Part shown: in pieces, positions 5,130 through 54,237 of the stretch
Layout of the letters: each line of letters opens with the position of its first letter
Position numbering within the stretch: the stretch's first letter is position 1
NCBI GenBank assembly: GCA_050084515.1
Contig: CM114271.1
Span: forward strand, 37,944,001 to 38,008,000
From: Blasia pusilla
Lineage: Eukaryota
Reading direction: 5' to 3'
Length of the DNA: 64,000 nt
The notes under the pieces: model-generated
Databases searched by the model: none
Told to the model about the DNA's origin: nothing
Seen by the model: only the letters and a program-made list of their open reading frames with translations
Position numbers and translations under genes: made by a program

Positions 5130-5146
5130 TATAGCAACAAACTTTT

Positions 5147-5166
5147 TGGTGCCGCTGCCGGGGATC
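5147..5166 (+). promoter_or_regulatory. Primer-binding site complementary to the tRNA-Asp 3' end
   Basis: TGGTGCCGCTGCCGGGGATC versus the canonical Athila-type TGGCGCCGTTGCCGGGGATC (2 mismatches); starts 17 nt after the LTR end. Confidence 0.8.
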
Positions 5167-5684
5167 ATATGCTTTGCTAAGGAGGGAGAGAGACACATGG
5201 GGAATCCAAGAGCGGGGAAAGAAGCCTCGTCTCCTAGAAGACCCAACCACTTAGTTCTTACTGAAGACCATCTGCTATCTCTAGCCATCCCCCTCAGACA
5301 ATGGATGAAAGAAAATAACAACCGATTTGCTGCATTGGTGCTAGAAAAGAGAGAACGATTAATAAGTATTTTCAATAAACCAGTCATCAAACGGTGCTTC
5401 GCCCATGAACGTCGGTTGTACTTGGTGATGACCCGGTACTTCTGTTTATGGGAGGAAAACCTGGCAGGAAGATTCAGAGCACCTGCACACTCCTGTGGGC
5501 TTAGGAATTAGAAAGATTTAATTTCCCTCCATGGACCCCTACCTTGTTGCGACCATGGGTGTGGAAGTAAGCTCCCGAATCCCACAAGGGACTCATGGAA
5601 GTCTCCCAACCCTCTTCACGAGATCAGCGAGTTGATCGACGCAATAAGCAACAAGAAGATCACCCGTCTTGAAGACCGCATGGG

Positions 5685-7560: not shown

Positions 7561-7586
7561 TTCCATCAGGATATTGAGGACCAGGT

Positions 7587-10500: not shown

Positions 10501-10720
10501 CTATAAACGCCGGGGACCTGGTGCTGTTGTATGATAACCGTCGGATAAAGTTCCCTGGAAAGTTAAAATTGAACTAGATGGGACCCTACCGGGTATTGGC
10601 CATCTATGATAACGGATCGCTACAGTTGGGGACCTTGCAGGCCAAATCTTTGCCCACTCGTGTCAATGGAATGCATGTTCGGCGGTATTATGAGCCTCAA
10701 CCCTACGCGGACTCAAACAG
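7587..10720 (+). pseudogene. pol of Athila-like element: aspartic protease, RT, integrase; RNase H deleted
   Basis: PIDSRSGINIM (protease), WVSPIVIVPKK..IRVCHDYRKLN, LDGYSGY, MPFGLCNAP, FLDD (RT); GHY..CQSC-type zinc motif, WGIDFMGP, LVSDYGTHF, NPKANG, GPY (integrase). Multiple stops and frameshifts. Confidence 0.9.
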
Positions 10721-11283
10721 GAGGAAGGGGGTGAGCGACTACCTTGAGCTTCGCAAAAGGGCGAAGCGCGAGGATACTGGGACTTTGCGAAGCGCGCAGC
10801 ATGATGTCTGGGAGCTTCACGAAGCAGCAAAGCGTGCGAGTTCTTGAGCTTTGCAAAGAAGCGAAGCGCCAAACTAACTGTTGCAGTTCCGGCGCCAACA
10901 CCAAGAGCCCGCATAACGTTGGGACTATATAAGCATCCCTACTGAACCAGACGGGTATTTTCATGGATGGAGTCACCACAAAGTTGCGGAGCAGACCAAA
11001 GCGGGGCGTTCACCGAGATCGACCTACCAGCATGCCTCATGAAGACTCCACTCCCATTCTGCGAAGTGCGGCCATACGTATGGTCAAGCTGTCACCAGAG
11101 CTGGTCGAAGCGCTTGAAGAGTGATCTTTGGCAACTTTCTTTCAAGCTAATTGGACATTGACATCGGGGGAACTCCTCGGGGAGCTTCACTCCTCGACTG
11201 CAGCAGCCAAGTTCTGAAGAAAGGGTCTTCGGTATCGAGCTCAGCCCCAACAATGGACACCGGATGACTGGCGCGCCACTTAT

Positions 11284-11715
11284 ATGCTACCGGCTGCTCC
11301 AGAGTATAAGTATGATACCGAGGCCCTAGTAAAACACAAAGATTTATTGACACTCGGTTGTGTCACATCGGATCGTCTGGGCAGGAATGGTTATAAGGCT
11401 ACGTCGTTGTCTCCGCCATTGTTTGGACAGTTTTGTAAGCATTTGATGACATTATTTTACCCCGCTCAATCTTACTACCTAACAAATAAGCTTGTCAGGA
11501 TGTGCTATATCCTTTGGAATCAGCACCTGGACCCCGAAGCACCGGGAGTCGACTTTGCTTCCTTTGTCGATGGGCACGTACGAGCAATGCTGAAGGCGCT
11601 TCATCCGAGCACAAAGTCCTTCTTGTCCCCCTTTACTATTCATGGTTGTTTAACGTCTACGCCTAAGTTTGATAGCTTAGAAGACACATTCATGGATTTA
11701 GAAGGAACATCATGA
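11284..11715 (+). pseudogene. Additional sense ORF remnant of unknown function between integrase and 3' LTR
   Basis: 143-aa open stretch inside the element, downstream of pol; extra 3' ORFs are common in Athila/Tat lineages. No motif recognised. Confidence 0.35.
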
Positions 11716-11740
11716 AGTGTTCGCCAAGGCGGCTCACATA

Positions 11741-11756
11741 TGAGGGAGGGGGTATA
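11741..11756 (+). promoter_or_regulatory. Polypurine tract
   Basis: TGAGGGAGGGGGTATA immediately before the 3' LTR. Confidence 0.85.
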
Positions 11757-12982
11757 TGTGATACAAACAATTTTTTACTTTTGAAGAAATATATCTTTTT
11801 ATTCAACAAAGACTCTTGTACATTATGATTTTGATTTTGATTTATTATTATGAGGAGGACAGAGTAAGATTAAAGTGAATCAAGAAGCTCCAAGGACAAG
11901 GCAAAGAGATGGAAGATCAAGGATTTGCCTAAGAGGAGAGGAGAATAAAATAACGAAGTCTCAAGACTCAGCAAGAAGCTTCGGAATGTCAACGAAGCTC
12001 AACAAAGCTTTGTCTACGAAGTGCTTTGCTCTATAACGAAGCATAACAAAGCAGGAAGAAGAAGAGAAAGAAGTACTTCGCTCTTGTACGAAGTGAGAAG
12101 CACGAAGCACCTTAAACAAGAACGAAGAATGGAGTGCTTCGTCTTCAAGAAGTCCAGCGAAGCAAAGCTAAGAATGAGTGTGATTTCAAGCGACGCACCG
12201 TTAGAACAATTAGACTAGGAAAGGGCACGACCAATTGTATCAAATTGGTAGTTAGGACAGTTTTTTTCTGCGGATTGACAAGGATCGTAGGAAAAGCTAA
12301 GAGAACCATAGATCTAGGTAGTTACAAATGCTGAAGAGACACCAGCTTCATCAAGAACGCTTCGAATCTTTGGATCACTCCTACTCTAGCGAGTATTTAA
12401 GAAGCAAGACAAAAGCCATAATCATCACTCTCTTATGAAGTCCTTATGCTGTAGGAATGGTCCGAGCAAGGGAGTAGTACCCCCTCGAGCTTGTATACAC
12501 CTTTGAAGTTTCCTCATTCTTCATGGAGTAGTAAAGCAATCATTCATTCATTCAGATGTGCGAGGCTTATGTGTGAGTATTCTTTTTGGGTCTGCAGAGT
12601 GAATCAGTCGAGCCCTTCTCATCAATGAAATAATCAACATGAGTTGTAGGAAATCTGTTTGACAGAGAGTAGCCTGCCGAGGAGTTGAGTTCGAAAGTAG
12701 GAGAAGCCAACTTTCTTGTTGAGGTCTCTATGAGGTTTCTTGATATTGAGAGGAAATCTACCTGAGCATGTTGTCAATTCCACTAGAGAGAATTGAGAAA
12801 AGATCCCTTGGTACTAAGAAAGATCCAAATATATTGATAAGACATTGAATATAAATCATACACATTCAAATACAATTATTACAACATAATTGTAATTTCG
12901 AACTCTCTTTTCATCAAACAATGATCCTCTTGGGGATCAAACTCAGTAAACGACTGTAAAATTGAAACTCTTATACATTACA
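11757..12982 (+). repeat. 3' LTR of Athila-like element
   Basis: Direct repeat of 3900-5129, ends CATTACA. Confidence 0.95.
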
Positions 12983-13539: not shown

Positions 13540-15010
13540 CCGCATCCCTCCCACATTCCATCTATCCATCAACTCATTCTCCATCCCCACTCCATCCATT
13601 CGTTCTTCTCCCTCTAAAATCATCCATGAACCCCATCCTTCAATTCATTCCATCCCCCATCTATTTCTGCACTCCTTCTTTGTCCATCTATCCATGCATC
13701 CCATCTTACATCTATCATGTAGGTCTGCCAAAACATATCTTGGGCAAGATTTGAACTTGCATCATCAGGCCGATAGTTGAGTCTTCTACCACTAGCCCAC
13801 ACACTATTGTACGTACGTGTGCAAAAAATACAAAATTGTCATGTCTTGTAGGATAGATTCACGAGATCTAATAGAGCGCCTTTGAGGATATAGGAGCAAG
13901 GCCCCACGAGGTCGAGGATAACCAACAATGGCCACGGATAACCTTAGAGAGTAGGTTTTTCCTTAGTTTCGGCTCATTTGGAACCATATTGAGAAACTTA
14001 CTATTTTATGAGAGATTGTCAGAGAGTCACTTGATTTATTTGCAGATATTTTGGTATTTATCGTTTCAATGTTTGGATGCCATGAGTTAGCATGGGATCG
14101 TATGTGTTTGTGTATATGTTCAATGACAACGACGTATGTTATGTCATGATATGTATGCGCACAGCAAAATACATATAGAAATATTTTTTTTCCTTTTTGC
14201 ATATTTTTACTTTTTAAAACTCATATTTGTATTATTCTTTTTCAAAAATAATTCCCATATTCATATTATTTTATTTTTAAGTCTTTAAGGCTTAAAATCC
14301 ATACATAGAATAATAAATAAGTGATTTTAAAATATTAGATAATCTACGATAATAGTAAACTCATTGATATAATCCAATATGATAGTTTATTAGATCATAT
14401 AAAGTCTGAAAAGAATTTAATGATTACAAAAGCTTATCATTGGAGTTTTTTTTTAGAAAACTTTTCTTGTATTAAATAAAAAAATTTATTCAATCATTAG
14501 TCTGTTGCTGGATGGATATTTCTCAATTCTAAAATTTCAATTATTTTTGAAATAAAATAATAAAAATATGATTTTTTAAAATTAAAAAATTAAACAGTTA
14601 AAAAGATATTTCTATACGTATTAAATTTTTTTGCTCATGTACATACATTCATGTGTGGACTAGAGGTAGAAGACTCCACTACAAGTCTAATGGTGCAAGT
14701 TTAATTCTTGCCCAAGATATATTTTGGCACATCAAGATGATGGATGTACGGTGGGTCACATGGATGGATGGACGGAGACGGAGTTCATAAATAGATGGGG
14801 GATGGAATGCATGGATGGATGGTGTTAATAGATGGAGTTTGGAGGGAAAAGAATGGATAGATGGAATTGACGGATGGGATTAATGGATGAAGAGTGGATG
14901 GAGAAGGAGTTGATGGAGAGATGGGGTGAAAGGATAGAGTAATAATGGAAAGACATAATTGATGGACGGATGGAAGGTGGAAGGTGGAATGGATCCGGAT
15001 AGAGGGTGCA
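13540..15010. mobile_element. Non-autonomous long-TIR (foldback/MULE-like) element with AT-rich core
   Basis: TCCATC-rich 13540-13815 is the approximate reverse complement of GATGGA-rich 14640-15010, including a shared ~90-bp tRNA-like segment. No TSD found; ends uncertain. Confidence 0.5.
13837..14166 (+). mobile_element. 330-bp solo A-B terminal unit of the DNMT/PHD retroelement family
   Basis: Starts TGTCATGTCT, with CGAGATCTA at offset 25 as in 17024; ends ATGTATGCGCACAGCA; perfect 4-bp TSD AAAT. Confidence 0.8.
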
Positions 15011-16288
15011 ACACGTGGAAAAAGTAACGGATGAAGGGTGTATTTGAGATTGGGACCTATAGTTACGTGGTTGGCGACGGATATAGATTCAGCAAGCAAA
15101 CATCCTTAGCATCCTTCTTATCTTACATTTTACTTTATGTTCGAGAGTCTGATTTACGTGTGTCCATTTGTCACAATGTTGGTGAGGTGCTGAACCTTGA
15201 TCAACCTAATGTATGGATGAAAGCATGTTCTCAAAGGGTTGAGTTATTTTGGAGAGTTATGCCCATTGCATTTGAGAACTTGGCGATTGCGTAACATTGG
15301 GATAATTTGAGGTATTCTATTATTTGGGGAGATGATTATCTAGCAATGATCTAGAGGTTCATCAGGGAGACTATGTCTACTTAAACAAACAACACCTACG
15401 TCGACATTGGATGTGACCAAAGGGTGCATCATCTTGAGAGAGTTTGATGCATTGCCATATGTTATTCTTTTAGTGGAGGGACACAAAGATATGTTTTGGA
15501 AGGATCATATGCATAACTATGTGGTATATCACATTCATAGTATTGATGGTATGGTTTATTTGAGCTTAGCATTAGTTCTTCCACACTTGCATTGTATATT
15601 GTGTGGTTTTGACCATGGTGCAACCACTATGCTAGTTTGTGATAGGTGTTCGAGAAGGTGGTATATGGCATGTTAACGCCATCTCCCACTAAGGTTCCTC
15701 CGAGACAATGGATGTGCCCTAGATGTACATAGAATAGAGACTAGGTGGCCATAGATCCAGACTTATATTTTTGAGATGGAGGAAAAGAAGGCGATTAACT
15801 ATGGGATCGTATGATCACCCAACCTTTTTTCTCTTAGCGTCTTAGAGATGTATCTCATGGTAGGTTGGGATAGATGGCTATGTGGAGTTAGAAGGACCTA
15901 ACCACCAAGTACGGGGCCAATTGGAGATATTTTGGTACATGATCCTATCGATGTCTAGATGCTATGAGTGAGTGTGGTATCTTGTATGTTTATATATTTT
16001 TGGTGATAATCATATGTTTTTTTGTAGTGATATGTATGCGACTAAGCGCACGATAACTATCACGTCTTTTAGGATAGATTGACGAGTTTTGGTAGAGTGC
16101 CTTCCAATATATTGGAGAAAAGTCTCAAGAGGTTAAGGATGACCTATTGATACTTTGGAAACTAGAGAAAACAAGTTTCCCTTTTTGTGGGTTTATTTGG
16201 AGCTATATATAGAAACCTCCTATTTTGGGAAAGTTATCGATAGGAATAGAATTGAATTTCCACTTTGAGACCCTTGACCCTCTACAGC

Positions 16289-16734: not shown

Positions 16735-18736
16735 CCTACATCAAGTCAAGAGCCAAGGAAGTGACATGCAAGCATAAGATACCATGGAGAGAGCTTGGGA
16801 GAGGAAAGGGGCTATATCTTGCAAGAGGAGAGAACTTTGGAGCTAGTTCTCTCTCTGTTCACACTAGAGCTGTGGTCCTCCTTACCTTTTGAGTAATCCA
16901 AGGATATTATTAAGAGAGTGGGTTTGGTTTGACTTGAGAGAGATGATTTGTGTGAGAAACATTTTTGCATATTGTGAGACATTTGAGTTCTTATGATTGA
17001 ATTGGATATATTTTGGTACATGATGTCACATCTGAGTGGCCGATAGGCCGAGATCTATCGTGGATAGGGTGGAGCCAGCGGACTATCTTGAGTGTAACTT
17101 TGTCCCACGATGTCGGATGAGGTTGAGGATAGGTCCATTGTGTCAGGAACGTCGTTTCTGACAACTTTCATGTTGAGATCTTTCACAGCCGGGTGACTTG
17201 TTGACCAGGTCACCCACCCCTAGTAACCTGTGCGCGCAGGTTACCAAGGGAAGGGCTATTTTTAGGGGAAGAGCCTTTTGGCTCTTCCCAACCCTATATA
17301 AGAGAGGAAGATGGCTTTCCTAAGCCATCTTTCTCATGTTGGGCCGTTGGAGCACCTCCCTTGTATGTGTGTGAGCTAAGACTAGGGTGCTAGCGTCTGG
17401 ATTCCTTGATAACACAGGGTGGACGAGGCTCGATATACCGATGTAGATTGAGGAGTGGAGTTTTAGGCCGGATGTGCCGTTTTTACTACTCTTTATTTTT
17501 ACATGAGAAAGATGGCAGGGGGTTGGTGGGAATTCGTTGTTTGCAGGCAGGCCAGCGAGTTGCCTCGGTTGGGGAGCCCCTGGAGGCGTGTGTGTGACGT
17601 TTTTTGTGTCATTTTTCTCTTCGGAAGGCCGTGGGCGGAAGCGTTGTCCATTTTTCTCAGATTTTTTGGTGTGCGGATTGATGGGGGGATGGAGAGCGAG
17701 TGTAGTGTGGTGGGGCGTCGGGTGTACGCAAGTGAGGGTGTCGAGAGAGAAGGAAAGGGCAGGTTTGGGTCTTGCAGCCACCGGGGGGCTGTCAAGTAAA
17801 GGCGGCTAGGTTAGGTCGCGAAAGCTAGAGTTAGGTCACGGACGGGTTGGGCGCGGACGGCAGACGGGCTGGTCGCGGACGGCGAGGGGCGCGGACGCCG
17901 CCTCCCCCCCCGCCATTTAGTGCCCTTCCCCAAACTTGGGGAGGCCCATAGGGGTGCGGGCCGCGGTCCAAAGTTTTCCCCCTCTCCAACGTGGTAGGAA
18001 TGGATGCTGTTGTAGCGAACGTGGTAGGACGGACGAGGTCGGTCCGGCGAACACGGTGCGCATGGGCAACGTGCGGGCAGGGAGGATGTCGACGTGGTGG
18101 GTGACCGGCAAGTTGGACAGCGGGCGTGACATGATGTTTTTGGGGCGCGACAGGGCATTGCGAGAGTTTACGATGGAGGGGCAGTGTGCATGATGCCGAC
18201 GGGTTGTCCGCATCTGTTGACGGGAGGATCGACGTGTTGGTCGAGGGGAGTGTTATATGGCGGAGATTATCATATCATGTGGAGGAGTGCATATTGACGG
18301 TGCAAAGAAAGTTGAGGCGTGATCAGGTTACCCATTTGAGTCCCTTTTCCCGCACTTGTCGTGTGTGATTGAGAGTGCTGGGTATCAGGTAGTAGTTGGT
18401 GCTAGATGGTTGCAGTGATGGTGACGAGTGTAGATTCTTTTCATATGTAGCATGTTGGTGGATATACGGCGGTTGCCGAGTAGGGGTCGCGTGTATGATC
18501 CGAGAGAGTGTCGCTAGGTTAGGTGAGTCAGTTGGGAGGCTCATGGTGAGCCCGAGTGTTGAGCGTGCGTGAGGCCGGGTATGTCATTACGGGATGGACG
18601 TTAGCATAGGTGAGCTAGTGAGGCGTGTGGGAGACTCTCGGTGAGTCTAAGTGCTTGAGCGGGTGAGACAGGGTTTGTCATCACGGCGTTCTTCCAGGGT
18701 TCGGAAGAACGGGGTAGTGCGAGCAGTGGTAGTGGT

Positions 18737-20421
18737 GTGACACGGAGTCGAGTGAGATACCGAGGGGTTACTAGTGAGGAGCTCCCTCGACATCCATCCG
18801 TGACTGGATCGTCATTACTGGACACTGGGTCTGGTGACGAGATCACCAACAGAGACAATAGTACTTGGCAGGAGATGGACGACATGGGCCATCGGGGCAT
18901 GCGTCGTTTCTCGGGTGCAGTGGGCACCATCGACTTAGATGATTTCATCCAGGAGTTTGACACATGGTGCGACTTCCAAGAGATACGGACCCCGACACGG
19001 TTCAACCCTTTCATGGCATGGAAGGGGTTGTTCCAGCACTTGGAGGGTCCTCCGATGGATGACTACATGGAGTTTCGATCACTATATTCAGTAGAGATCG
19101 ATGCCTGGAGGATGTATTGGGCTCCAGGGTATGTGTCCACTAGTGATCACGAGGCATATGATGGGATTGTGAGAGGAGAGAGACACACACCATCAGCCCG
19201 GAGACTAGATGGAGAGGAGGGCAATGAGACAGCGATGTGGCGAGAGACCTCTGGTGGTAGAGGTCCCACCCGCCCGGCCCAAGACAAAGTGGAGTTCTTC
19301 CGGCGGTTGGGGAAGAGCTACCAGGGTATGCACGCACCGACAAGGTGAAGAGTCTACAGGATTTTCAGCGACGATCGGGTGAGAGTTTGAGAGAGGCCTT
19401 CACACGCATGAGGAGGCTGATCATGGCTACGTTTGGAGTGACTGAGGCGTAATCAGTCCAGTATTGGTACGGGCTTCTGGACCGAGAACTACGGAGGAGA
19501 GTCCGAGATGCGGTGCTCATTCACACAGCGAAGCCCACATTGAAGGTGGTCTTTGAGTTGTCTGAGCGTATTGAGCTCAACATGAGTGAGGAGCAGGTAG
19601 TGACCGCTGGATTTTCTCGGGAGTCGACGGGTCCACGAGCGGTGGTGACCCCACAGGTGCCACAGCAAGCACCAGTACCACGGGAGCGGGCCAGTGTGCC
19701 TAGAGAGCAGGGCAGGTACCGTGAGCCTATGAGGCAACGACCCGCACCTACATATGTTGCCCAGCAGGGACCGATGTGGTCTTGTTGGACGTGTGGAGGG
19801 GCCCATAGGCTGAGAGACTGCCCACAGCATGGGAGAGGACCACCAGTGCCTCCGATTGCGCAAGAGCCACAAAGGATGGCCCCACCACAGCACCAGTGTG
19901 ACCATTGCCATAGATATGGTCACACTAGGGATAGATGTTTTGACCTTCGCCGAGGGGCACGTCCAGAGGTAGGCCGAGGGCCTGGGGGCAGTCATCTTGG
20001 AGGAGGTTGGGGAGTTCTTCCTGGACGTGGTGGTAGAGGACCACCACCAGCCAGAGGAGATGGAGCAGGAGCACCAGAGCCGGCGCTTCTCTCACGCATT
20101 GATCAGTTGGAGCAGAGGATTGCTGCCATGACGATGATGCAGCTTAGGGAAGGCACGGAGTTGCAAGCACCTAGTGTGACTCCAGTCTCTACCTCTTACC
20201 CTGACCCCGGTGTGGATCTCTCCAATATGGGATTCATGTGTAGTGCAGCCCAGGTTGAGGCAGCTGCAGTGGTGACTCGGGGTGCTGCGAGAGGCATTGA
20301 GCCATCGAGAGGTGGAGTTGAGATTGACCCACCAGAGGGGACCGATGGGCGGCAGGCCAGGGTTCCACAGTCGTTCACATTGTCGGAGGCACTACACACA
20401 CCATCGATGGTGCCTCGATGA
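18737..20421 (+). pseudogene. gag with two CCHC zinc knuckles
   Basis: RFSGAVGTIDLDDFIQEFDTWC; QRRSGESLREAFTRMRRL; CWTCGGAHRLRDC (19783-19821); CDHCHRYGHTRDRC (19897-19938). Frameshift near 19340. Confidence 0.85.
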
Positions 20422-20799
20422 CCAGCGGTGCCTACAGTTCAGGCAACTACGTCGACGTCACGAGGAGTTGGAGTGACAACTCCTATGCCGGCTTGAGTGG
20501 AGTCAGTGTCGACTATAGTGTTGGAGGTGGCCACTAGAGTGAGTCAGACTCGCTATTTTCCGCCTTAGAGTTGGCGACGTTGGGAGTTGGACCGATTGAG
20601 GTGTTCGGTTGGCCGCCACGTTGTGTGAGCGTGAGAGAGATAGCGCTTCTTGTTCAGAGGTAGTTGAGGAGGTGGTGGACTTGCCCTCAGAGCCGGTGCT
20701 TGGGACGTTCCCCATAGAGTCATGGCATGCGGCGGCGGTGAAGTTGGTAGATATGCCAGCTCGACCGGCCATAGAGCGAGAAGTGGTGACACCTGGAGT

Positions 20800-21190
20800 A
20801 GTGTTACTGGATAACCGAGCTGGAGTATTTCGCTTGGTTAGTTTGACGGGGATAGTATACCACCCGCAGCGCGTCCTACTTGATTCGGGAGCGCAACCCT
20901 TGATGTTAGGGAAGGCGGCGTGTTTAGCGTTGGGATTACGGAAGGCCGACATTGAGCCTTGTCCCTTCTAGATAAATACCTCGATTGGGGGCGTATCACC
21001 CACTCAGTATATGACTCGACAGGAGATTGTTGTGAGAGTCAGCCAGAGCATGCGACGGATAGTGCTATGGTGCGCACACATGCGATTACGACACTAGCTG
21101 AGTCGTACAATGTGTTGGTGGGGAGAACAGTGTTATATCCCCTAGGATTCATCCTTGACTTCTGGGAGGAGACCGTTGCTTATCGGCCAT
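20800..21190 (+). pseudogene. Retropepsin aspartic protease domain
   Basis: RVLLDSGAQPLMLG (Asp codon 20882-20884) and downstream YNVLVGRTVL. Confidence 0.85.
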
Positions 21191-21590
21191 GATGGCGGTC
21201 GGTCAGATGAGTCAGTTACCTGTGCAGTTAGCGGGACAAGGTGGTCGATCACGAGGCGAGTCTGTGACCACGTTGGCGGCTTTCACAGGTAGTGTTAGCT
21301 GGCCAGGAGAGTTGTTGGAGGGGAACGCACATGCGAAGGATGTCCCATTAGCGGATAGTCCCACGGAGAGACAGGCCATGGCGGGTGTCTCTTCCCATGT
21401 TAGCGATGCCTCTTCACCATTATGGGGTACGACTCAAGAGCTACAGAGGATGGCCGACGACCTCGTGAGGCAGGCGTGGAGTCATGTTTTTATCCCAGAG
21501 CAGCGAGAGTCACGTGGCGATCGGGCTCTTGGAGTGGAGACGATGACCCCACTAGATACCACACCTGTTGTGTGGCAGTGCCCAGAGGAG

Positions 21591-22550
21591 GGTGTTAGGG
21601 TGTTAGATCTCTTTGGAGGGATTAGCACCGGATTGGCGGCCATATTGCAGGCGGGCATACGGGTGCATCAGTACCTTTATGTGGAGAGAGATGAGACCGC
21701 ACGGCGAGTATCATTACGTCACGTGGCGAGATTGGTCCAGAGGTATCCTGAGTTGTTGTCGGTATCTGCAGTATGGGGATACCAGCATACACTACCCGCC
21801 AACATATCTTTGGTGGGGGCGCAGGATCTGGATAGAGTTGGCACCATTCATTTGGTGATTGCTGGATGGCTATGTCAGGGTCATTCATCAGCTGGCCGAG
21901 GATTTGGATTGCAGGATCCGAGGTCATGGATGCTTTGGGAGATGCTCCGAGTAGTACGACACTTGCAGGAGAGTCAGATATGTTCTCCAGCGTACATTTT
22001 GGAGAACGTGCCATTGTTGGGAGATACTCGTGCACGTGTGATGACGAGTGTACATTAGGTGAGGTCGTGGTTGGGACCTGTTGTGTTGTTAGATGCAGCG
22101 AGAGTTGGGTCACGTGCCCATTGTCCACGACTGTGGTGGACGAACCTGATACCATCAGAGGTACTGAGTCGAGCCTACAATGGAGTCCACAGAGCACCAC
22201 ATCTCACAGTGGATGCTATTTTGGACTCAGGGCGTCGATCTCAGGTGGTGACACGTGATGATAGACCACCATTGGCCACGGGCAATAGGGTGGGGGAGTT
22301 GAGGGCAGCCTTACCTACGTTGGTGAGCTTCCTAGCATCCCATGCCTTTCGTTAGGGAGGGCCAGGCATGATTTGGGATGAGGTGACCGGAGTATTGGAG
22401 GAGCCTACAGCAGATGAGCGCGAGCGTGCCATGGGGTTCACTACCGGTACTACGGCGGTGCCAGGGATGACTGAGACATCACGGAGACAGGTGTTGGGGC
22501 AGGCGATGGACCTCAACTGTCTCACATGGATAGTCAGCCTAGGTATGGCT
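21591..22550 (+). pseudogene. DNMT3-like C5 cytosine DNA methyltransferase domain within pol
   Basis: Motif I VRVLDLFGGISTG; motif IV LVIAGWLCQGHS (normally PCQ); motif VI YILENV; motif VIII RAHCPRLWWTNL; motifs IX/X ERERAMGF...RRQVLGQAM. All in one frame with two internal TAG stops. Confidence 0.92.
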
Positions 22551-22844
22551 GAGCAGAGACGGATGTGAGTGTCATCCATGCCGCCACGTCCACAAGTTGG
22601 ACCACTGCCTACAGGGTCTGTACAGGCATTGGCTGGGGGCCAGATGAGGAGAGATAGGCACCCATGGACTTCCTGGGACGTCGTTCGAGCAGAGAGTGCG
22701 AAGGCGGCTAGAGTAGCACATGTTCATTTTTCGGATGTGGAGCATGGTGTAGGAGGTCAGAGTGGAGTGGTTGTTGCGGAAGTGGCTAGGGTTGCTACAT
22801 AGCAACCAAAGCCGGAGGTTGAGTCCTCTCCGAGTGAGGTCACG

Positions 22845-24290
22845 ATGGAGACTTGGGAGCCTATGATAGGTCTCAAGTTGATAGGAGGAGAGCGACGGCG
22901 AGTTCATAGGTTTCTGAGAGGGCATGTCAGTTGTTTTGCCTTCATTATGAGAGACTTGGGTACGCTGAAGGGTCCCGGGATACGGATTGAGTTGGCTAGT
23001 GATACGCCGATCTTTCGTCGACCCTACAAGTATTCTGATATGGAGCGAGCCTTGATTCAGAGAGGAGTCGGAGGACTTGTTGGAGGCAGGACTTGTGGAG
23101 TTATCACATGGGGAGTATGCATCCGCCAGATCATGCCGGCAAAGAAGGATATGTATGGCAATTGGACGGATAGGCGGATGTGTGGAGATTACCGTCCTAT
23201 CAACCGACACACGAGGTCAGATCGGTATGCCATGCCTACTCGAGGAGATCTTTGATGCGGTAGGGCATGCAAAGATCTTGATTTTTAGATCTTCGTCTTT
23301 GGCTATCATCAGCTTCCTATCAGGTTGGAGGACAGGAGAAGACGACGATTCAGGGGATAGATCGGTTCGGGAGAGATTGCTTTATCGATGGCGGTTCTTA
23401 CCATTTGGGTTGAAGAACGCGCTGCGGAGTTTCAGAGTGATGGATGGATAGGATTCTGGCTGGCTTGGATTTTTGTGCGATGTTACATAGATGATATTCT
23501 TATCTTGAGTTCCACGGTTGAGGAGCATGAGCGACACTTGGAGGAGGTGTTTCGGCGATTGCAGTTACATGGACTGAAGTTACATCCAGGCAAGTGCAGA
23601 TTCCTTTAGGAGCAGATTGAGTACTTGGGACACACCATATACCCGAGTGGGTTAGGCGTTCAATAGACGAAGGTAGAGGCTATTGCGCAGATTCCACGCC
23701 TTATAGATGTGAGTCGAGTCCGAGCATTTCTTGGATTGGCGAACTTCTATCGACGGTATGTCAAGGGTTTTAGTGCGATCGCAAAGTCTTTGACCTTGTT
23801 GACGAGACTTGATCAGGTGTGGTTGTGGGGAGATGATCAAGAACGAGCATTTCAGAGCTCAGGGCAGGTTGAGCGTCCTCACCCATTTTACTGAGAGACC
23901 GGTTCGGGTCGCCCATTCCAATTACATACGGATTGGAGCATGTTGGGTCTAGGAGCAGTGCTTACTCAGAGGGATGACGAGGAGAGGGAGTTCGTTGTGG
24001 CTTACGCGAGCCGATCGAACATCATTGCAGAGGCAAAGCAAAAACGGCCTACGAGGGAGAGTGCTTGGCTGCGGTGTGGGCCATGGCACATTTCAGGTGC
24101 TATTTATTCCGCAACCCTTTCACACTTATATCGATCATCAGCCATTGAGGTGGTTGATGGAGTCCGACAAGCTTACGGGAAAGCTTGCCGGGTGGGCTCT
24201 ATTATCTGCAGGAGTATGAGTTTGAGGTGGTTCATAGGCCAGGTCGGTTGAACCAAGATGCGGATGGGTTGAGTCGTAACCCATGTCCGA
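22845..24290 (+). pseudogene. Reverse transcriptase and RNase H (many frameshifts)
   Basis: PIFRRPYKYS; RRMCGDYRPIN; FLPFGLKNA; CYIDDILI (23481-23504); LKLHPGKC; LHTDWS..GLGAVLTQ; VAYASRS; DHQPL; DADGLSR. Confidence 0.92.
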
Positions 24291-24489
24291 GTCGAGAGAG
24301 GCGACCGAAGCTCGATGGCACGGAGAGAGTGATGAGGAGATGGTGCCGGTTGGCATGCATTTGCCTATCTTTGTTGGTTGACTATGGCGGGTCGACCCAC
24401 AAGTGATGACTCGTGGTGGGGTTGGATGATGAGTCTTTGGATCCGGAGGTCGGTGAGGAGGCGGTGGTGGTCGTGATATCCATGACGAT

Positions 24490-25920
24490 GTGGAGGTTGT
24501 GGAGTTCTTGCGCACTGGCGTCATAGCGAGCACAATGAGTGCTAGGGAGCGGGATCGGATCCTACAGAGAGCCAAGAGGTTCAAGTGGGAGGGGACTCAC
24601 ATTTTGCGGATATGGGGAGATGGTAGGATACGAGTGGTACCTCATCCTTCCCAGCAAGCACGTGTAGTGCGACATGCCCATGAGGAGTTGGGACATTTCG
24701 GAGTAAAGCGTATTTACGACTTACTCAGGTGTTCGATATTGGTGGCGCGGCATGCATACTGGGGTACAGAAGTTTGTGGCCAGATGTATGGTATGTGACA
24801 GAGTGCAAGCATCCTTCAATGCTCCCACTCCGCCGTTACATCCTTTGCCAATTATGGGTTTAGGCTATCGGTGGAGTTTAGACTTTGCGGGACCTTTGCC
24901 ATTGATAGGGCGTCATCATAGGTACGTGTTGGTCATGGTGGAGCATTTCTCCAAGTGGATAGAGTTGGTGGCACTACCAGACAAGGCGAGCAAGGGAACA
25001 GCTTATGCATTTCTAGATCGTGTGCTTAGTCACTTTGGTGCACCGGCGGAGGTGTTGACTGACCAAGGTACCGAGTCCAAGGGAGAGTTTCAGGCCTTGT
25101 GTGATCAGGCGCTGATAGATCACCGTACCACATCCAGGGATCATCCTGAGGCGGATGGGTTGGCGGAGAGAGTGGTACAGACGGTGAAGAGAGGATTGCG
25201 CAAGTATGGCTTGCAGCACGGACAGTTGAGGGAGTGGGACCTACAGTTGCCATGGTTGGCTATGGGTTATCGCTTTAGTCGGCAGGCATCCTTGGCTTCA
25301 TTTTCACCGTACTTTTTGCTCTTTGGGAGAGAGCCTGATTTACCTGCAGCGATTCGACGTGACATGACGGAGGTGTTAGATCTTGATGATCCAGATGTGT
25401 GGGTGCAAGCATGTTCTCAGAGGGCAGAAGTTTTTCGTAGAGTTATGCCTATGGCCTTTGAGAACTTAGCTATTGCCCAACATAGAGATACATTGAGGTA
25501 CGCGACCATTCGTGGAGGAGGTTATCGTCCAGGGATTAGGAGGTTTCATCCTGGAGATTACATGTATTTACAACAGGCGGCACCCACGACGCTAGATGTC
25601 ACTGCAAGGCGCACGATCCTACGTGTGCGCGAGGTATTACCGACCGGAGTCCTCATGTTGGAGGGACGGGATGGCATGGTTTGGAAGGATCATGTGCGCA
25701 ATTGTGCGCCATGTCATCTTTCGAACGTAGATGGGACAGTGGATCCGAGCTTGGCAGTGGTACCTGCAGGCTTGAGGTGTATGTTGTGCGGATCTGCGAG
25801 GGGTGCAGCCACCATGTTGGTATGTGATGGTTGTTCTCGAGGGTGGCATATGTCATGTCTGACCCCCCCCCTCTTGATGTGGTTCCCACGGGACGATGGA
25901 TGTGTTCGAGATGTGTATAG
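24490..25920 (+). pseudogene. DDE integrase with C-terminal PHD finger
   Basis: HAHEELGHFG..CMVC; SLDFAGP; LTDQG; GLAERVVQTVK; then CMLC-x10-CDGC..WHMSCLTPPL, continuing after a poly-C frameshift (25863-25871) as DVVPTGRWMCSRCV-stop (25918-25920). Confidence 0.92.
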
Positions 25921-27059
25921 GGTAGTAGGTCATGTCGAGAGATGTGATATTTTCTATATCGGAGTTGGGGGATCCAAGCGCCCGGCTAGGGGCGGTTGAG
26001 TGATCTCCATGTATATGTATGAGTTGATTTTTGTACATGTGTGGATCGACCCGTGTGTGGGGAAGATCGGTGTTGTGTGGTGTAGATGTGACCAGCGATG
26101 TATGTTGTGTAGCGATATGTATGCGCACGACAATGATCTTCTCGATGTCAAGATCTAAATGTCATGAATTAGTGTGGTATCTTATGTGTTCATGTGTGTA
26201 TTAGGTGACAAGGATATATGTTGTGTAGCGATGTGTATGTACATGACATCTACTAACTCGTCTTCATTAATCCATATTTCAATTCTTCTTGAATATTATG
26301 AAGATTTCAATGAACTTCTTCATAGGTTCAAATCTCACGAGAGCCACAGAGAGTGTTGTAACACAAGAGTACAATGTGACCTAAATCTCCCGTACTCAAT
26401 TCCTTTCAAGAGTTAACTTGAAGATCTCTTCTAGAATTAGTAACTTTGTCATTGAAGAAGTCCAGAAAACTCAAGGCCTAAGGCATTCATATCTACCCTT
26501 GCACATTCTTCCGCTTCAAGGATGCAGTCAAACCTTGTTAAAACAACCTACGTTTGCACCTAGTGACCTACAATCAAAGTTCTTCAACTTCTCTAAGGAG
26601 AATTGCACCCATAAAGAAATCTTCTTCTCCTCATGTTGTAGAATTGTTAGACTCTTTGGTGACACCAAGAAAGAACTACCACACTTTGAAGAAATATTCT
26701 TGGATTATATGACAAAAGCTTTGGTCCTTCCAAGGTGGTAGCACACATTTCACACTAAGTCAAGTATCATCTTTCCGATTTAGAAAGTTAATCAAGACCC
26801 CAGATAGACATGATCTTAAATACAAACTATTCTTAATCTTAACGATTCTTAGAGGTGTTTATGGCTTATGCTTATGTGTAGACCATATCAAAATACTTTT
26901 TTCCTTAAGAAATGATGTGAGAAGGCCAAATGCGTCATCCTAGCACCATGCTCTAGCTATACTAGTTAGCATGCTTGTGCTTGCGCACATAAAGAATTTT
27001 TTAATAATTTAGAAATATTTTTATTTCAGAATTTAAATATAGTTTCCACTTTCTTACAT

Positions 27060-27495
27060 CTTGCCCTTGAGCCCGTGCCCTGCCCACCTCGAGCCTACAT
27101 CTGCCCGCTTGGAGCCTGCCCTAGGCCACACCCAATGAGCTTTGAGCCCGCGCCTGCGTGGCCGTAGCCCACACCTGCCCGCCCAGAGCCCGCACTTGCC
27201 CGCCTAGCCTCACACCGCCCTCCCTAGTCTATACTCTGCTGCCCCAGCCCGCACCTGCCCGCCTAGAGCCCGCGTCTGCGTCTTAGCCTACGCCCAATCA
27301 GCCTTGACCCCATGCCTGCCCGCCCCAAGCCCCCACTTGCCCGCCTGGAGCCCGCGCCCGCCCGCTCGGAGCTCGCGCCTGCCCGCTTGGAGCTCGCGCT
27401 TGCCCACCTTGAGCCTGCCCTACGAGCCACGAAAGGGGTGTGGGTCGGGCATGTCCGCGAACATGTCTGGACTTGTCCGTTTCCGTGCAACCTTG
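27060..27495. mobile_element. Truncated hAT-type MITE with GC-rich GCCCGC/GAGCCC subrepeats
   Basis: Right end GTCCGTTTCCGTGCAACCTTG matches the family TIR; interior resembles the reverse complement of 38806-39713. Confidence 0.65.
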
Positions 27496-30371: not shown

Positions 30372-33300
30372 CTCATGCTCCGGCGGCGGAGCTCTACGGG
30401 ATGGCGGCGGTGCTCCACGGGGATGGCAGCGGGGAGGGGAAGGAGATGGTGGGATGGAGGATGGAGGGGGGTCGTGTGTTATGTCAAAACGGAGATACCG
30501 ACTTCCTCTACGTTTTGATCCGTATTAGGGTCCTCTTTGTTGTCTCGTTTTGTTGTAATGTTTTGAATGTTTCCAAGACAACTCATGTTGTTATTTCACA
30601 CCACCCCTCTTTTTTTTCTCTATGTCCTTATTCTGTAGCCACACACGTTCCTCGTTCACGTTTGACCCATGTTTTTTATCCCTTATCCCACTCTATTCCC
30701 ATCTATTTTTTCCATCTATTCTTTTTCCATATCACTAGTACCTCCATACTATCTCTACATTATTTGGGGAAGGGGTTGGGCCATATGTCATAGGTAAGAT
30801 AAGATGGTAGATGAGAGTTCATACTAGGGAGAGCATTTTCGTGGACGGGAAGAGAGTCAGTTACCATTAGGGCTAGTTCAAATGGGGGTTGTGGGGCGGA
30901 TTTTGGCGGGGTTTGTCTCTCGAGTTTGACGGAGGGGGTCATGTTCTCTTCTTGGTGAGAGGTGTCCATGCCTAGACCCACATCAGCCCCTCGTGTAGGG
31001 GCTCGTGGATCGTCTAGCCGGGATACGAAATGCCCTTGTTGTCCCGAATTCTTCTTTCGTTCAGGAATTCGGAACCATTTAGCGGCTAAACATCCTGAAT
31101 TTGATAGATTCGGATGGGTGGTTCCTCCAATCGATCATGGATGCTTACCGGTGCTTCATGCATCATCGCCTCCTCCCGAGGCATGGGAGTGGTTGAGGTC
31201 CCACCTTGGCAGTATCACACGTCTCTTTCGGACCCGTTTTTGCTGCCCGAGGTTGTTTCATAGGATCCCCCATGCTATTCAGGATGAGCTTCGCTAGTCT
31301 TTCATCCTTCCCTTATCTAGGATTGCACTTGATCCTATGGATGATCTCTCGTGATATCTACTACTTCTCCTTCCACGATGGTGTCTTTGCTTTACCCGAG
31401 GAGGGAAAGCTGGCCATAGAGAGGTTGTGGCCCGATTGCGGCGCTTTCGAGGAGGTGATTGGGAGTCTCTGCAGAGCGAGTTCGTGGCATATGCCAGAGG
31501 TAGCACTCCACGTGGTTTCCCAGCACACGATCTTGTAGATGCCAGATTGCGACGATGTAGGAGACTTGGGCGAGCCGGGGAGTACTCGCGAGCGGCTCGT
31601 GCGCTCTGCCCCATGGATATGGCTCCTCCTTCCACTGTTACCATTGACGCCCTCCGGAGGCTACACCCTCGTCCAGTGGTTGACATCCCAACATTTGTAC
31701 GTGACTTCCATCCTGACACGACCTTATGCCTAGAGTCGTCCCTCTTTGCACGGGCACTCGGGCGTTCCCCTAGGATAGCAGCTGGAGGGTTGTCCGGTAT
31801 GATGTACGAACACCTTTGTGATTGCTTTCCCTTTGAGGACTCTGCTAGCGGCTTTTCCGAGTTGCTTCAAGTTGCCTCTCACCTAGCTCAGGGGAGAGTG
31901 CCAACAGCAGTAGGCTAGGTATTGGGGGCGGGGCGACTTTTGGCGTTATCGAAGGAGGGTGGAGGGATCCGTCCGATTGCCAAAGGGGAGGTGCTCTTGC
32001 GGTTGGTGAGTCGCACTATCGCTTTGCAGTTCCGTGAGGCTTTCCAGTCACATCTGAGTCCGCACCAGTTCGGAGTGGCCACGCCAGCCGGTTGTGAGGC
32101 TGTAGCCTTAGGTTTGAGGGCTTGTTTAGATATACATCCGGAGTGGGTGGTTCTCCAAGTTGACGTGGAGAACGCTTTAACTCAGTGTCTCGGGCAGCAA
32201 TCTTCACGGAGTTGAGAGATGCAAGGGGTCCCATAGCGAGCCTGATTCTCTTCGTGCATGCTTTTTATGGGGCTCCCTCGGCTCTCTATTTTCACCACGG
32301 TAGGTTCGAGGAGGAGGTCACGGTCTTCGAGTCTGCTACCGGGACGTGTCAGGGTGATCCCTGGGTGGTGCATTGTTTGCTTTGGCTCATTATCGAGCGG
32401 TTCTTTCTACGGTGGAGGCTTTCCCGGGTTGCATTTTCCCTTCGTTGGCAAATGATACTCACATTGTCGGCCCTGGAGACTTGGTTGTTCTTGCATTTCA
32501 GCACTTTTCAGCACAGTTGGCACACGTCGGCCTCGTGGTGAAGGTGGGAAAGTGCAAGGCTTGGTCTTCATTAGGCTGGTCAGCGGATATTCATTTACCC
32601 GACGGTTTTTTGATACCTGCTAGAGGGCTTTGCGTCTTGGGAGTCCCACTCGAGAGCCAAGACTTTGTATCGAGTTTTGTGGCGGCGGCTCTTACCGAGG
32701 ATCTTCTTCATGTCAACGATCTCACGAGGATTGGTGACCCTCAAGTAGCTTATGGAATCCTCTCGTCATGTTTTGCCCGTAGACTTGGTTATCTGTGTAG
32801 AACCGTGTGGGCGACTAGCCATATTTCTTCCTTGTATAGATTCTTTGATAGAAAGATTATGCAGGCGTTTGGGGATCTTCTAGGACCCGGCTCATTAGAG
32901 TGCCCCGCGAGGGAGTTAGCTCGTAGACAGGCTTCTTGGCCGATTGCCTTTGGTGGAGTAGGGCTCATAGCGACTGAGTTAGTGGCGTCTTCAGCCTTTT
33001 TAGGGAGTTGGGCCACTATAGCACCCTTCCTTTGCTCCTGATTTTTGGTTAGGGATAGACTGCTACTTTTACAGTACGTTTCCCAGGTTGAGGATGGTCT
33101 TTTCCCAATTCAGTCTTCACTCATAGCTTGTAGAGACTCCCTTCTTGTTGAGGCTAGAGCAGTTCTTCCCGCTTTCTCTTCGCTAGTTACCTCCGGACAG
33201 TCTGGGCTCCAATCTTCTTTGATGGAAGCCCACTTTGATGCATTTTTTAGAGCTACTATGTCGGACAGGAATATCCCCATGGAGGTTCGGGCCCGTATTC

Positions 33301-34224
33301 GCTCTTGCTCCGGAAAGGGGGAAGGCTCATGGGTGGGGGCTCGTCCCCTCATCCCGGCTTTCCGCATCGCACCACTTACCTACACTACATCGATGAGGTT
33401 CCGACTGGGCCTGCCCCAACCAACGGTGATTGGTTTGACACATTGCGAGTGTCACTAGAGTCTGGATCCACTTGGTGTGCATTTGGCACGGTGTCCAGTT
33501 GGGGGTGAGAGGATAGCCACTCACAATGTTGTGCAAGATATTATGTTCTCTATTGCTCGGGAGAGTGGATTCCATGTACAAAGAGAGAGGCACTACTCCA
33601 TGCGGGATTCCCTTATCCGTGCTGATCTCTACATGACGAGGGAGTCTGAGGTGGTGGTAGCGGATGTTGTAGTGACTGATCCTACGCGGGAGGCAGTGCG
33701 AGCCCAAGTGGTAGCACAAGGGAGATTGCTACAAGGAGCGGCGGCTGCGGCGGCGGTCAAGAAGACCCACATTTATAGTCGACTTCATGACGGACATCGA
33801 TTTATCCCCCTAGCCATTCAGATGTACGGGGCGATGGGGGAGAGGTTTGACTCATTCTTTACGGATTGCACCCATCATCTCCAGTTGAGAAATGGGTTGT
33901 CCTTAGCCACTGCGATACTTTATTGTAGGCAACGGGTCTCCATAGCTTTGCAGCGTGCCCAGCCAAATGGGCTTCTGCGGCGGGCTCATGCGGTTGGAGA
34001 CGCCAATGCTAGAGGCCCACTTAGTAGTAGTCATAGTTCTCTAGGTGTTGCTGATATTGTCTCTGCTGTTGGTGATTTTGGTCGTTAGGGTTGAAGGCCC
34101 CCTTCTTTCTCCTCGGGGCCGGTTCCGGCCTCTTGAGGTCTATTTTTTGGGTCTCCATGCCTCCTCTTTTGTATCGTGATGGGTTTCCCATCCTTTTTCT
34201 ACATATATATATTTTTATTCTCTC
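30372..34224 (+). mobile_element. CRE-like non-LTR retrotransposon with restriction-like endonuclease, apparently full length, degenerate
   Basis: Perfect 12-bp TSD GCTATAAGGTGT (30360-30371 and 34225-34236); single broken ORF with zinc finger, RT and RLE. Confidence 0.88.
30968..34088 (+). pseudogene. Non-LTR ORF: C2H2 zinc finger - RT - CCHC - PD-(D/E)xK endonuclease
   Basis: CPCC..RNHLAAKH; GGIRPIAKGEVLLRL; PHQFGV; VDVENA; GTCQGDP; SLANDTHIVG; CECH..HLARC; THNVVQD; RADL..ADVVVTDP; FIPLAIQMYG. Confidence 0.88.
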
Positions 34225-38805: not shown

Positions 38806-39713
38806 CAAGGTTGCATAGAAACGGACATGTGCGGCCCGCACCCGAGCCTGCCTTGGAGCCCGCTACCTAAGCCCAATTTGACCCAGCGTGCGCCCATTGC
38901 ATGGCCCGTAGGACGGGCTCAGGGCGGGCTAGGTACGGGCTCAAGACGGGCACTCTAGGGATCGGGTGGGCAAGCATGGGCTCAACACTGATTGGGCAGG
39001 GGCCCTGGACGGGCAGGTGCGGCCTCAAGGCGGGGAGGCGCATGCTCTAGGCGGGCACGCGCGGGGGCTTTGGGCGGGCAGGTGCGGGCTCCAGGCGGAC
39101 AAGGGCGGGCTCCGTGCAGGCAATTTTGATTGGGCGCGGGCTAGGGAGGGCAGGCACGGGCTAGGGCAGGCAAGCGTGGGCTTAGGGCTGATTGGGCGGG
39201 GGCTCTGGGTGGGCAGGTGCAGGCATCTGCAAGCTTGGGGCGGGCAGGTGCCGGCTCTGGGCGCACAGGTGTGGGCTCGAGGCAGGCAGACGTGGGCTAC
39301 AGCGGGCAGACGCGGGCTCAGGGCTGATTGGGCGAGGAATCAAAGTGGGCACACGCAGATCAGAGCGGGCACGGGCTCAAGGCTGATTGGGCGAAGGCTT
39401 TGGACGGGTAGGTGCACGCTCCAAGCGGGCAAGTGCAGGCTCCAAGCGGGCAGGCGCGGGCTCAAGGGCCTCGTGCAGGCCTTGAGTCGGCACCCAGGGC
39501 GTGCAAGGTGAGTTCGAGGCTCGCACCGAGCTTGCCTCAGGCTGGTTGAGGGCCACACAACGGCTACAAGGTGTGGGCGGGCTTGGATGCGGGCTGGGGT
39601 GCGGGCCCCGAGTACCAGAGCCCGCACGGACATGTCCGTTATCCATAAGGCGGACATAAGTCCGTGGATATGAACATATCCACGGATACGTAATTTTTCC
39701 ATGTGCAACCTTG
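38806..39713. mobile_element. hAT-type MITE (long, GC-rich)
   Basis: TIRs CAAGGTTGCAT...GTGCAACCTTG; 8-bp TSD ATGACATC/ATGAAGTC. Confidence 0.8.
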
Positions 39714-52975: not shown

Positions 52976-54237
52976 TATGGATGTGAGCGTGTTCTCAAAG
53001 GGCAGAATTCTTTCATAGAGTGATGTCCATGGCATTTGAGAACTTGGCGATATCTATTACATAGCGTCGGTACGTTCAAGTATGTGACTATTCGGGGAGG
53101 TGGTTATTGACCAACTATCCAAAGGTTTCATCAGGGAGATTGTGTCAACTTATAACAAACGGCACCTACGACATTGGATGTGATCAAGGCATATTATCTT
53201 GAGAGTGGATGATGTTTTGCCATCTGGAGGGACGCGATGGTATGATTTGGAAGAATCATGTGCGTAACTTTGCGACATATCACCTTTCTAACAATGATGA
53301 TACAGTTGATCTAAGCTTAACAATAGTTCTTGCAGGCTTGCACTATATGTTGTGTGGTTGTGCCCGTAGTGCAGCTACTATGCTAGTCTATGATGGATGT
53401 TCGAGAGGATGGCATATGGCATGTCTGACGCCACCTCTCACTAGAGTTCCTCGGGGACAATGAATATGCCTCAGATGTACATAGAGTAGGTAGTTATAGA
53501 TTTCGACTTGTGTCTACGATATGGATGACAAGAAGGCGACTAACAATGGGGCCACATGAATATCCAGAATTTTTGCTCTTAGCATCCTAGAGATGTATAT
53601 AATGATAGGGAAGGATACATGGCTATCTGGAGTTAGAGAGACCTAACCACCAAATAAGGGGGTAATTGGAGATATTTTGATACTTATCACCTCGATGTTT
53701 GGATACCATGAGTTAGCATGGGATCGTGTGTGTTTGTGTGTGCATTCAGTGATAGTGATGTATGTTGTGTAGCGTTATATGTGGCACAATAGTTGTCATA
53801 TATTTTAGGGTAGATCGACTAGATCTAGTAGAGCACCTTCTAGGATAATGGAGGAAAGCCTCAAGAGGTCGAGGGTGACCTGCTGGGGCTACAGATAACC
53901 TGAGAGAGGAGGTTTCCCCTTCGTTTCAGCTCATTGGGAGCCATACATAGAAACTTACTATTTCAAGTAAGTTTCCATTTTGAGCATAGTTTCCTTTCCA
54001 TTTTGGAAAGTTGCCTTTGACCCCCTATAGTAGATCAAGAGCCAAGGATGTGACTTGCGAGCATAGGTTACCGTGGAGAGGGCTTGGGAGAGGGAAGGGG
54101 ATATACCTAAAGAGAGAGAGCTTTGGAGCTCATTCTCTCTATGTTGAACCTCTTGGCATGAGGCGATGGAGCTATGGTCCTCCTTGCCTTGAGTATATAA
54201 CCCAAGCCTCTCATTAGGAGACTCGGTTAGGTTTGAC

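Follow-up and report, generated by a model that had tools for sequence, protein, structure and literature searches.

What does the integrase of a methyltransferase-bearing retrotransposon carry at its C-terminus, and which of the element's enzymes does that part serve? Chromodomain targeting is the textbook chromatin-reading route of plant Gypsy elements. For a 64,000-nucleotide stretch of the Blasia pusilla genome (hereafter the window), a sequence-only reading had proposed an integrase that ends in a PHD finger rather than a chromodomain, is co-encoded with a DNMT3-like domain, and uses the finger to steer insertion to H3K4-unmethylated chromatin.

The proposed C4HC3 pattern, which appears once a frameshift in a run of cytosines is corrected, proved to be a property of the family. 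In the window copy the ligands are spaced C-x2-C, C-x2-C, H-x2-C and W-x-C-x2-C, with the codon of the first cysteine at 25778 and that of the last at 25912-25914. A Pfam profile search confirmed the domain assignment in the window (PF00628, E 7.9e-8, 25760-25870) and, over the whole profile, in a sister copy (E 1.2e-11; 44.9 bits against a cut-off of 24). The open frame at 24707-25999 joins ligands one to six to the integrase core (rve, E 6.2e-14) and Integrase_H2C2. Searching the genome (390 Mb, 26 contigs) for the finger returned at least 150 matches, 90-100% identical among those listed; 26 of the 30 best carry all eight ligands in frame, three break at the C-run (the window copy included) and one has a stop. 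As these 30 were chosen by a query that holds ligands one to six, the count is unbiased only for ligands seven and eight and the stop codon. The window element is a dead copy of an abundant family whose integrase ends in a genuine PHD finger. Four sister copies (L016, L022, L028 and L030) contain short, indel-dense stretches within sequence of 90-94% identity; these might reflect noise from assembling repeats, a cause that could equally underlie some of the C-run breaks.

Fusion of the finger to the integrase, in place of a chromodomain, held as well. Since a single residue separates the last cysteine from the stop codon (Table 1), no chromodomain lies behind the finger, and PF00385 was absent from 15 long relatives, 35 aligned members and the domain lists of the 240 hits listed; a chromodomain 3' of the finger is thereby ruled out. 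When the element was set side by side with chromoviruses of the same genome, their chromodomain was found to follow the integrase C-terminal module at the place of the finger. Integrase cores are 27-31% identical to those chromoviruses and 26% to another Gypsy. Judged from this alignment, finger and chromodomain share one slot, with no sign that one replaced the other. The genome also holds a high-copy, chromodomain-bearing Gypsy (L159-L164; at least 150 matches listed). Just before the finger, at 25700-25720, the three residues of a P-C-H motif are invariant in 24 aligned integrases, and C-x-P-C-H is present in 134 of the 240 relatives listed; the motif is possibly an extra metal site.

Table 1 Positions of the element's parts and of two related fragments within the window
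Feature	Position	Strand	Evidence and remarks
Decayed finger of related fragment	15590..15732	+	7/8 ligands, frame break
Terminal repeat A, 5' end, begins TGTC	17024..17500	+	Recurs 3' as B-A-B in 22/30 copies
Gag-like region, two Cys/His knuckle-like motifs, broken	18659..20800	+	ORFs; gag inferred from position
Aspartic protease-like region, LLDSGA motif, broken	20800..21150	+	Translation
DNMT3-like C5 cytosine methyltransferase, dead (stops, altered catalytic motif)	21585..22550	+	PF00145, E 7.5e-6; tblastn
In-frame TAG in CAR-YYA (type I readthrough) context	22800..22808	+	TAG in 19/19 mappable copies
Reverse transcriptase and RNase H, broken	23112..24204	+	tblastn with relatives
Integrase zinc-binding domain and catalytic core	24631..25400	+	PF17921, PF00665; tblastn
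Beta-rich integrase C-terminal module, in the slot of the chromovirus GPY/F module, P-C-H at end	25550..25720	+	Five strands in model; side-by-side with a chromovirus of the genome
C4HC3 PHD finger	25778..25914	+	Ligand spacing, PF00628, sister copies, solved-structure matches; frame broken in C-run 25863-25871
Stop codon of family pol, TAG	25918..25920	+	One residue past last Cys; 525 exact genome matches versus 12 with an A-, C- or G-starting codon
Terminal repeat B, ends GACA	25995..26132	+	Window copy is A...B, without second A-B
Decayed finger of related fragment	53340..53485	+	6/8 ligands, stop

A further claim, that two more copies within the window still have this finger, fell away. 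The sequences at 15590 and 53340 are degraded remnants, 67-70% alike to the main copy, with ligands missing and frames broken (Table 1), and tblastn with relatives found no integrase core, reverse transcriptase (RT) or DNMT match beside either finger.

The element spans 17024-26132 and comprises repeat A, gag-like and protease-like regions, DNMT, RT, RNase H, integrase, PHD finger and repeat B. Its order of protease, RT, RNase H and integrase is that of Ty3/Gypsy (tblastn with relatives), and the best solved match of one relative is Ty3 Gag-Pol (E 5e-102). The gag-like region gave no Pfam gag match and the protease-like region no Pfam match on the window; the LLDSGA motif of the latter we take to be an aspartic protease signature. 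Instead of two identical LTRs bracketing the coding region, the family has split repeats, laid out A-coding-B-A-B in 22 of 30 copies, with B alone at the 3' end in the other eight (the window copy and seven more); relatives L075 and L115 have split repeats too. The two A repeats differ at 4-32 of ~475 sites (14 copies). The ends, TGTC..GACA, and a 4-bp target duplication—ATGA around the window copy, and present in 13 of the 14 copies that have both flanks—are those of a DDE-integrase-type insertion. Troyka elements, described with CG..CG ends and a 3-bp duplication (PMC12440569), were ruled out as the source of the odd repeats by these same two features. At the inner B|A joint of sister copies (for example L008:2060-2105), GACA, two bases and TGTC follow one another. 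This joint resembles the circle junction of unprocessed cDNA ends, and the layout of the element is that of a two-LTR circle cut open within one of its LTRs. Inspection by eye revealed no obvious tRNA primer site after repeat A.

Element-like DNA makes up 9.3% of twenty evenly chosen 10-kb stretches of the genome (3.5% at ≥85% identity), and copies are spread along the whole of the longest contig. Yet pol is broken in all copies seen in the genome, the longest open frame at a match being 665 codons among the 150 matches listed. In each of three RNA runs from one study, ~1,000 reads mapped along the element, most of them to a single strand (sense, assuming a conventional library) and at 90-95% identity for the most part; at that identity, the reads come from sister copies or subfamilies.

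Beyond this genome, the full C4HC3 pattern is present in 179 of the 240 relatives listed, and many of the others are partial proteins. Hosts among the relatives listed include Calypogeia, Marchantia, Riccia, Sphagnum, Klebsormidium, Haematococcus, Pleodorina, Volvox and Tetrabaena, and the closest named integrases are from liverworts. Compared with 18 metagenome loci, the finger has a pN of 0.16-0.30 against a pS of 0.68-0.93, which argues for strong constraint across hosts; the within-genome count of 7 synonymous and 8 nonsynonymous changes (28 codons, 30 copies) is uninformative because the set was chosen by protein score. A tree of 71 sequences and 315 columns, subsampled from 240 proteins and 80 loci with a single distant integrase as root, puts the PF00628-bearing K. 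nitens integrases in one branch with the element (support 0.95). The deep nodes of the tree are weak, so it does not settle the order of DNMT moves.

One set of relatives, which we call algal-type (proteins P0189, P0228 and P0229; loci L100, L105, L116, L122, L123, L124 and L129), encodes RT, RNase H, DNMT, integrase and PHD finger followed by a Tudor-like barrel. The alignment shows a further domain after the barrel, with DPFxGxG and (T)SPP/WF motifs that we presume to be amino-methyltransferase-like; PF02086 matched weakly in 3 of 15 long relatives, and the best match in an atlas search (0.88) is a lead only. Direct repeats of at least 60 bp were found in none of the seven algal-type loci (L100-L129 set).

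What might the finger read? Its best solved matches are PHF12, CHD4, KDM5A/B PHD1, DPF, BHC80, ATXR5, BAZ2, AIRE and UHRF1, most of which we take to be readers of the unmodified H3 N-terminus, and it superposes on the ATXR5-H3 structure with an rmsd of 0.9 Å over 47 columns. PHD fingers that read H3K4me3 generally have an aromatic cage with a tryptophan two residues before the histidine ligand. At this position none of the 179 full fingers is aromatic and 170 have glycine, which sets them apart from H3K4me3 readers. The residues that contact H3 in KDM5B PHD1 (L325, D328 and P347/G349/W351; PMC4225485) are largely kept among the same 179 fingers: the aspartate after the third cysteine in 169, the proline in 157, the glycine in 148 and the tryptophan in 158. 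The finger thus has both parts of an unmodified-H3 pocket, the A1 site (PxGxW, with leucine two before the third cysteine) and the R2-binding aspartate; the nearest fingers keep the A1 pocket, and 17 of those 18 keep the aspartate. In fold and in this pocket it is like the H3K4me0 readers KDM5B PHD1, ATXR5 and BHC80, but the subclade finger does not have an acidic K4 anchor. An acid at two to five residues before the first cysteine occurs in none of the 18 nearest fingers as against 120 of 161 distant ones, and the equivalents of KDM5B D308 and E321 and of ATXR5 Asp44 are Ala, Ala and Ser in the family. The 18 nearest fingers are net basic, with a median of three acidic and five basic residues compared with seven and three in distant fingers. 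This basic-finger subclade (window 25760-25914; P0001-P0134 near clade) mostly has the stop codon discussed below, and the fingers of most algal relatives are acidic. The missing acid is not fatal to K4me0 reading, since the ATXR5 PHD holds K4 through backbone carbonyls only (PMC5499861).

A predicted complex of the finger, two zinc ions and host H3 residues 1-31 scored 0.44 (best control 0.03), with 96% of contacts agreeing between runs and a partner pLDDT of at least 55; in calibration, scores of 0.60 or below came from 5 of 78 true complexes and from all four passing mismatches, and as similar complexes are already solved the prediction may simply reproduce known structures, so it weakly suggests H3 binding. 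Of 30 insertion flanks, 15 were repeat-like, versus 118 of 380 background pieces (p 0.04), a faint hint of insertion bias given that the background pieces come from 20 stretches, are not independent, and that selection after insertion could also shape flanks. No target sequence preference was seen in 14 insertion sites.

By fold and A1/R2 pocket the finger matches unmodified-H3 readers, with K4-specific reading weakened in this subclade. The proposed reading of H3K4 state thus stands in part: the nearest solved fingers and the kept pocket speak for it, while the lost acidic anchor and the net basic charge speak against it. Our preferred reading, to which we assign a probability of about 0.55, is that the finger would tether the integrase to H3 N-termini and disfavour H3K4me3 chromatin. 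The loss of acids and the basic charge of the 18 nearest fingers would also suit a finger that no longer reads H3 in this subclade and has become structural, a basic DNA- or nucleosome-contacting part of the integrase, or a binder of another protein. The invariant P-C-H just upstream could tie such a finger to the integrase, and the ATXR5 PHD has a non-histone part in cofactor binding (PMC5499861); we nevertheless regard this as unlikely, since the A1 pocket and, in nearly all nearest fingers, the R2-binding aspartate are kept and the H3 prediction is weakly positive. That the finger is a decaying passenger without current function could be argued from the broken pol of every genome copy seen, but a pN far below pS across hosts largely refutes it and 26 of 30 copies are whole, which leaves this explanation scarcely credible.

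The position of the DNMT relative to the finger bears on which enzyme the finger serves. An in-frame TAG parts the DNMT from the RT in the window copy and in all 18 sister copies (of 20) that hold the site, and 17 of the 19 mappable copies have CARYYA behind it. Exact matches to the TAG in the genome number 750, against 19 with an A-, C- or G-starting codon, in patterns whose downstream context was fixed and whose count leaves other T-starting codons outside; together with the same site in other hosts, this rules out a random or deamination stop. UAG CAR YYA is the type I readthrough signal (PMC2754532, PMC11166343), with an efficiency of 6-10% in stable plants (PMC2754532), and here it stands in frame with coding sequence on both sides, as a readthrough site does. 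Among 22 metagenome loci with the DNMT before the RT, 11 have an in-frame TAG-CAR-YY (ten of these loci are closely related and carry a different sixth base), three broken ones have stop-CAATCA, and eight do not have the site, four of these being fully open. The CAR context is kept in all 14 related loci that have a DNMT-RT stop. In relative L052, 1369 open codons precede and 1047 follow a single TAG CAG TTA (L052:5083-5091), the only stop in its ~2,400 codons. We infer that gag-protease-DNMT would be the abundant product and RT-integrase-PHD the rare one, made by readthrough. No description of a readthrough-type stop in this lineage was found in open-licence full text.

The co-encoded DNMT3-like domain itself was borne out: besides the PF00145 match (Table 1), the enzyme of an intact relative matches DNMT3A/B/C first (E 5e-8), and the Pro-Cys motif is kept in 14 of 18 sister copies. 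Among 120 long relatives, 67 carry a DNMT in the same protein (64 directly before the integrase, three before the RT), 38 pass from RNase H to integrase with no DNMT between them, most of these beginning too near the RT for upstream content to be visible, and 15 are too short. The DNMT thus takes two positions and the finger is always at the integrase end. In the algal-type loci no stop falls between RNase H, DNMT and integrase (7/7). Protein P0217 combines protease, RT, RNase H, integrase and PHD finger in a single chain that contains no DNMT, and it groups with DNMT-bearing elements (support 0.98).

The ADD domain of DNMT3 consists of a GATA-like knuckle and an all-Cys PHD-like finger adjoining the catalytic domain. 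The finger here is of another type: it has a histidine ligand, unlike ADD, and sits ~1,000 codons past the DNMT, beyond the conserved stop. ADD families gave no match to it at E 0.1 (window) or 0.01 (35 aligned members), and DNMT3 ADD is absent from the best 60 of its 78 solved matches; canonical C4HC3 spacing and the missing ADD match rule out ADD identity. A functional substitution, by which the finger would do ADD's job and guide or activate methylation on H3K4-unmethylated chromatin, was the sequence-only reading's model. The two domains do travel together, in 67 of the 120 long relatives and mostly side by side, and the uninterrupted algal-type chain of DNMT, integrase and PHD could be reader plus writer, so the model is more plausible there. 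For the element in the window we consider it improbable, as the finger is a canonical C4HC3 lying far downstream of the DNMT and of a conserved leaky-type stop, and stays on the integrase when the DNMT moves or, as in P0217, is lost. Were the TAG a true stop, RT-integrase-PHD would come from a separate shorter RNA or from reinitiation, and an in-frame ATG 15 codons past the TAG in this family (+3 in one related group) and the deeper RNA on the RT-integrase half (~8-25 versus ~0.1-11 on the gag-DNMT half) would fit. We think this rather unlikely: in L052 the 24 codons that follow the stop include no Met and an exact CAR YYA is kept, the CAR context persists in every related stop-bearing locus, RNA depth is confounded by 3' bias and cross-mapping, and no splice joint was among the 15 joints listed (46 more were not listed). 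With a leaky stop between DNMT and finger, the integrase is the likelier enzyme for the finger to serve than the methyltransferase, and the DNMT probably acts for the most part independently of the finger. The role of retrotransposon DNMTs has been called unclear (PMC5890265).

On the preferred reading, tethering of the integrase by its finger, the element would make a gag-protease-DNMT protein and, by occasional UAG readthrough, a less abundant extended protein that also contains RT, RNase H, integrase and PHD. Once reverse transcription is complete, the integrase would insert the cDNA with a 4-bp staggered cut, as the observed duplications indicate, while the C-terminal PHD would bind the free H3 N-terminus (A1-R2-T3) on target nucleosomes, a step suggested by the kept pocket residues. 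Without a methyl-lysine cage, the finger would bind H3K4me3 tails poorly and so tilt insertion away from active promoters; promoter avoidance is the least secure step in this subclade, whose fingers are without an acid to anchor K4. Being produced at Gag level, the DNMT would most likely act inside the particle on cDNA of the element itself, or on new insertions, with no need of the PHD. More speculatively, and in a reading less likely than not to hold in full, these parts may be read together as a green plant and algal Gypsy lineage with a modular epigenetic kit on its integrase. The algal chain (RT, RNase H, DNMT3-like, integrase, PHD, Tudor-like barrel, amino-methyltransferase-like) would be a reader-guided insert-and-mark machine; in the present branch the DNMT would have moved before a leaky stop, to be made and packaged at Gag level and methylate cDNA ahead of its insertion; the integrase with its PHD tether would be supplied by the rare readthrough product, and the finger, whose charge changed at the same time, may read another surface.

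In REM1 of Chlamydomonas, the PHD reportedly lies in a separate antisense ORF. More generally, PHD is a widespread accessory domain of mobile elements, among them CR1-like LINEs, REM1 and Chlamys (PMC6673714, PMC8557442), and PHD-transposon fusions have been reported (Grau-Bove et al., bioRxiv 10.1101/2021.11.30.470311); PHD-bearing transposons, as described in the available parts of these sources, do not unite DNMT3 with a PHD at the integrase end. In chromoviruses (for example MAGGY; Gao et al. 2008, cited in PMC6673714 and in the Grau-Bove preprint; REXdb, PMC6317226) a histone reader likewise occupies this slot, but there it is a chromodomain in an element with two LTRs and here it is a PHD with split repeats. 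KnitGypsy-Dnmt3 of Klebsormidium nitens (de Mendoza et al. 2018, PMC5890265) shares the Gypsy domains, a DNMT3-like domain and DIRS-like split repeats. That paper puts the DNMT in the Pol ORF, whereas in this element the leaky-type stop follows it; in this subclade the DNMT does not share an ORF with RT and integrase, and in another subclade the frame between them is open. The term PHD occurs nowhere in the accessible main text and supplementary files of PMC5890265. As noted above, the relatives in this branch include PF00628-bearing integrases of K. nitens, which supports common descent with the K. nitens elements. Relative to KnitGypsy-Dnmt3, the lineage here is far wider (liverworts, moss, chlorophytes) and makes up ~9% of a 200-kb genome sample. 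EpiLTRs/DAM-LTRs (bioRxiv 10.64898/2026.05.21.726589) also combine a reader and one or more methyltransferases in one LTR element; they have a chromodomain and a DNMT4-sister enzyme, with PHD not named in the portion available, as opposed to PHD and DNMT3-like here. PHD on retrotransposons and Gypsy-DNMT3 fusions were therefore already known, and we found no paper naming the integrase-terminal PHD or the leaky stop of this lineage. Neither an integrase-terminal PHD with DNMT3 nor an algal DNMT-integrase-PHD chain was found in open-licence full text; Supplementary Table 6 of Grau-Bove et al. may list fusions of this kind.

The window contains other mobile and repetitive DNA. A second, unrelated broken Gypsy (RT, integrase), taken as an outgroup, occupies 7578-10307. 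A 1.2-kb repeat occurs three times (3900-5129, 11757-12982 and 51678-52944); two copies, 97% alike, lie around 5130-11756 and are possibly the LTRs of that second Gypsy. Broken ORFs at 31355-34088, for which Pfam gave a weak DUF7169 match only, look to us like a non-LTR retrotransposon with a restriction-like endonuclease. A hAT transposase remnant (PF05699, PF04937) lies on the minus strand at 50047-51614, a tandem array with a ~180-bp unit at 47922-49510, GC-rich 21-bp arrays in opposite orientation at 27067-27430 and 38958-39467, and a 1.4-kb element with long inverted arms at 13558-14924.

If readthrough here runs at the 6-10% reported for the signal (PMC2754532), the leaky stop predicts about ten times more DNMT than integrase; such an excess would point to action in the particle, not to PHD-guided methylation. 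The natural variants of the lineage, with the DNMT before the stop, fused to the RT, fused to the integrase or absent, permit these arrangements to be compared. A PHD finger in the chromodomain slot of elements that make up several percent of a land-plant genome would be a second route to chromatin, addressable with existing histone-mark maps.
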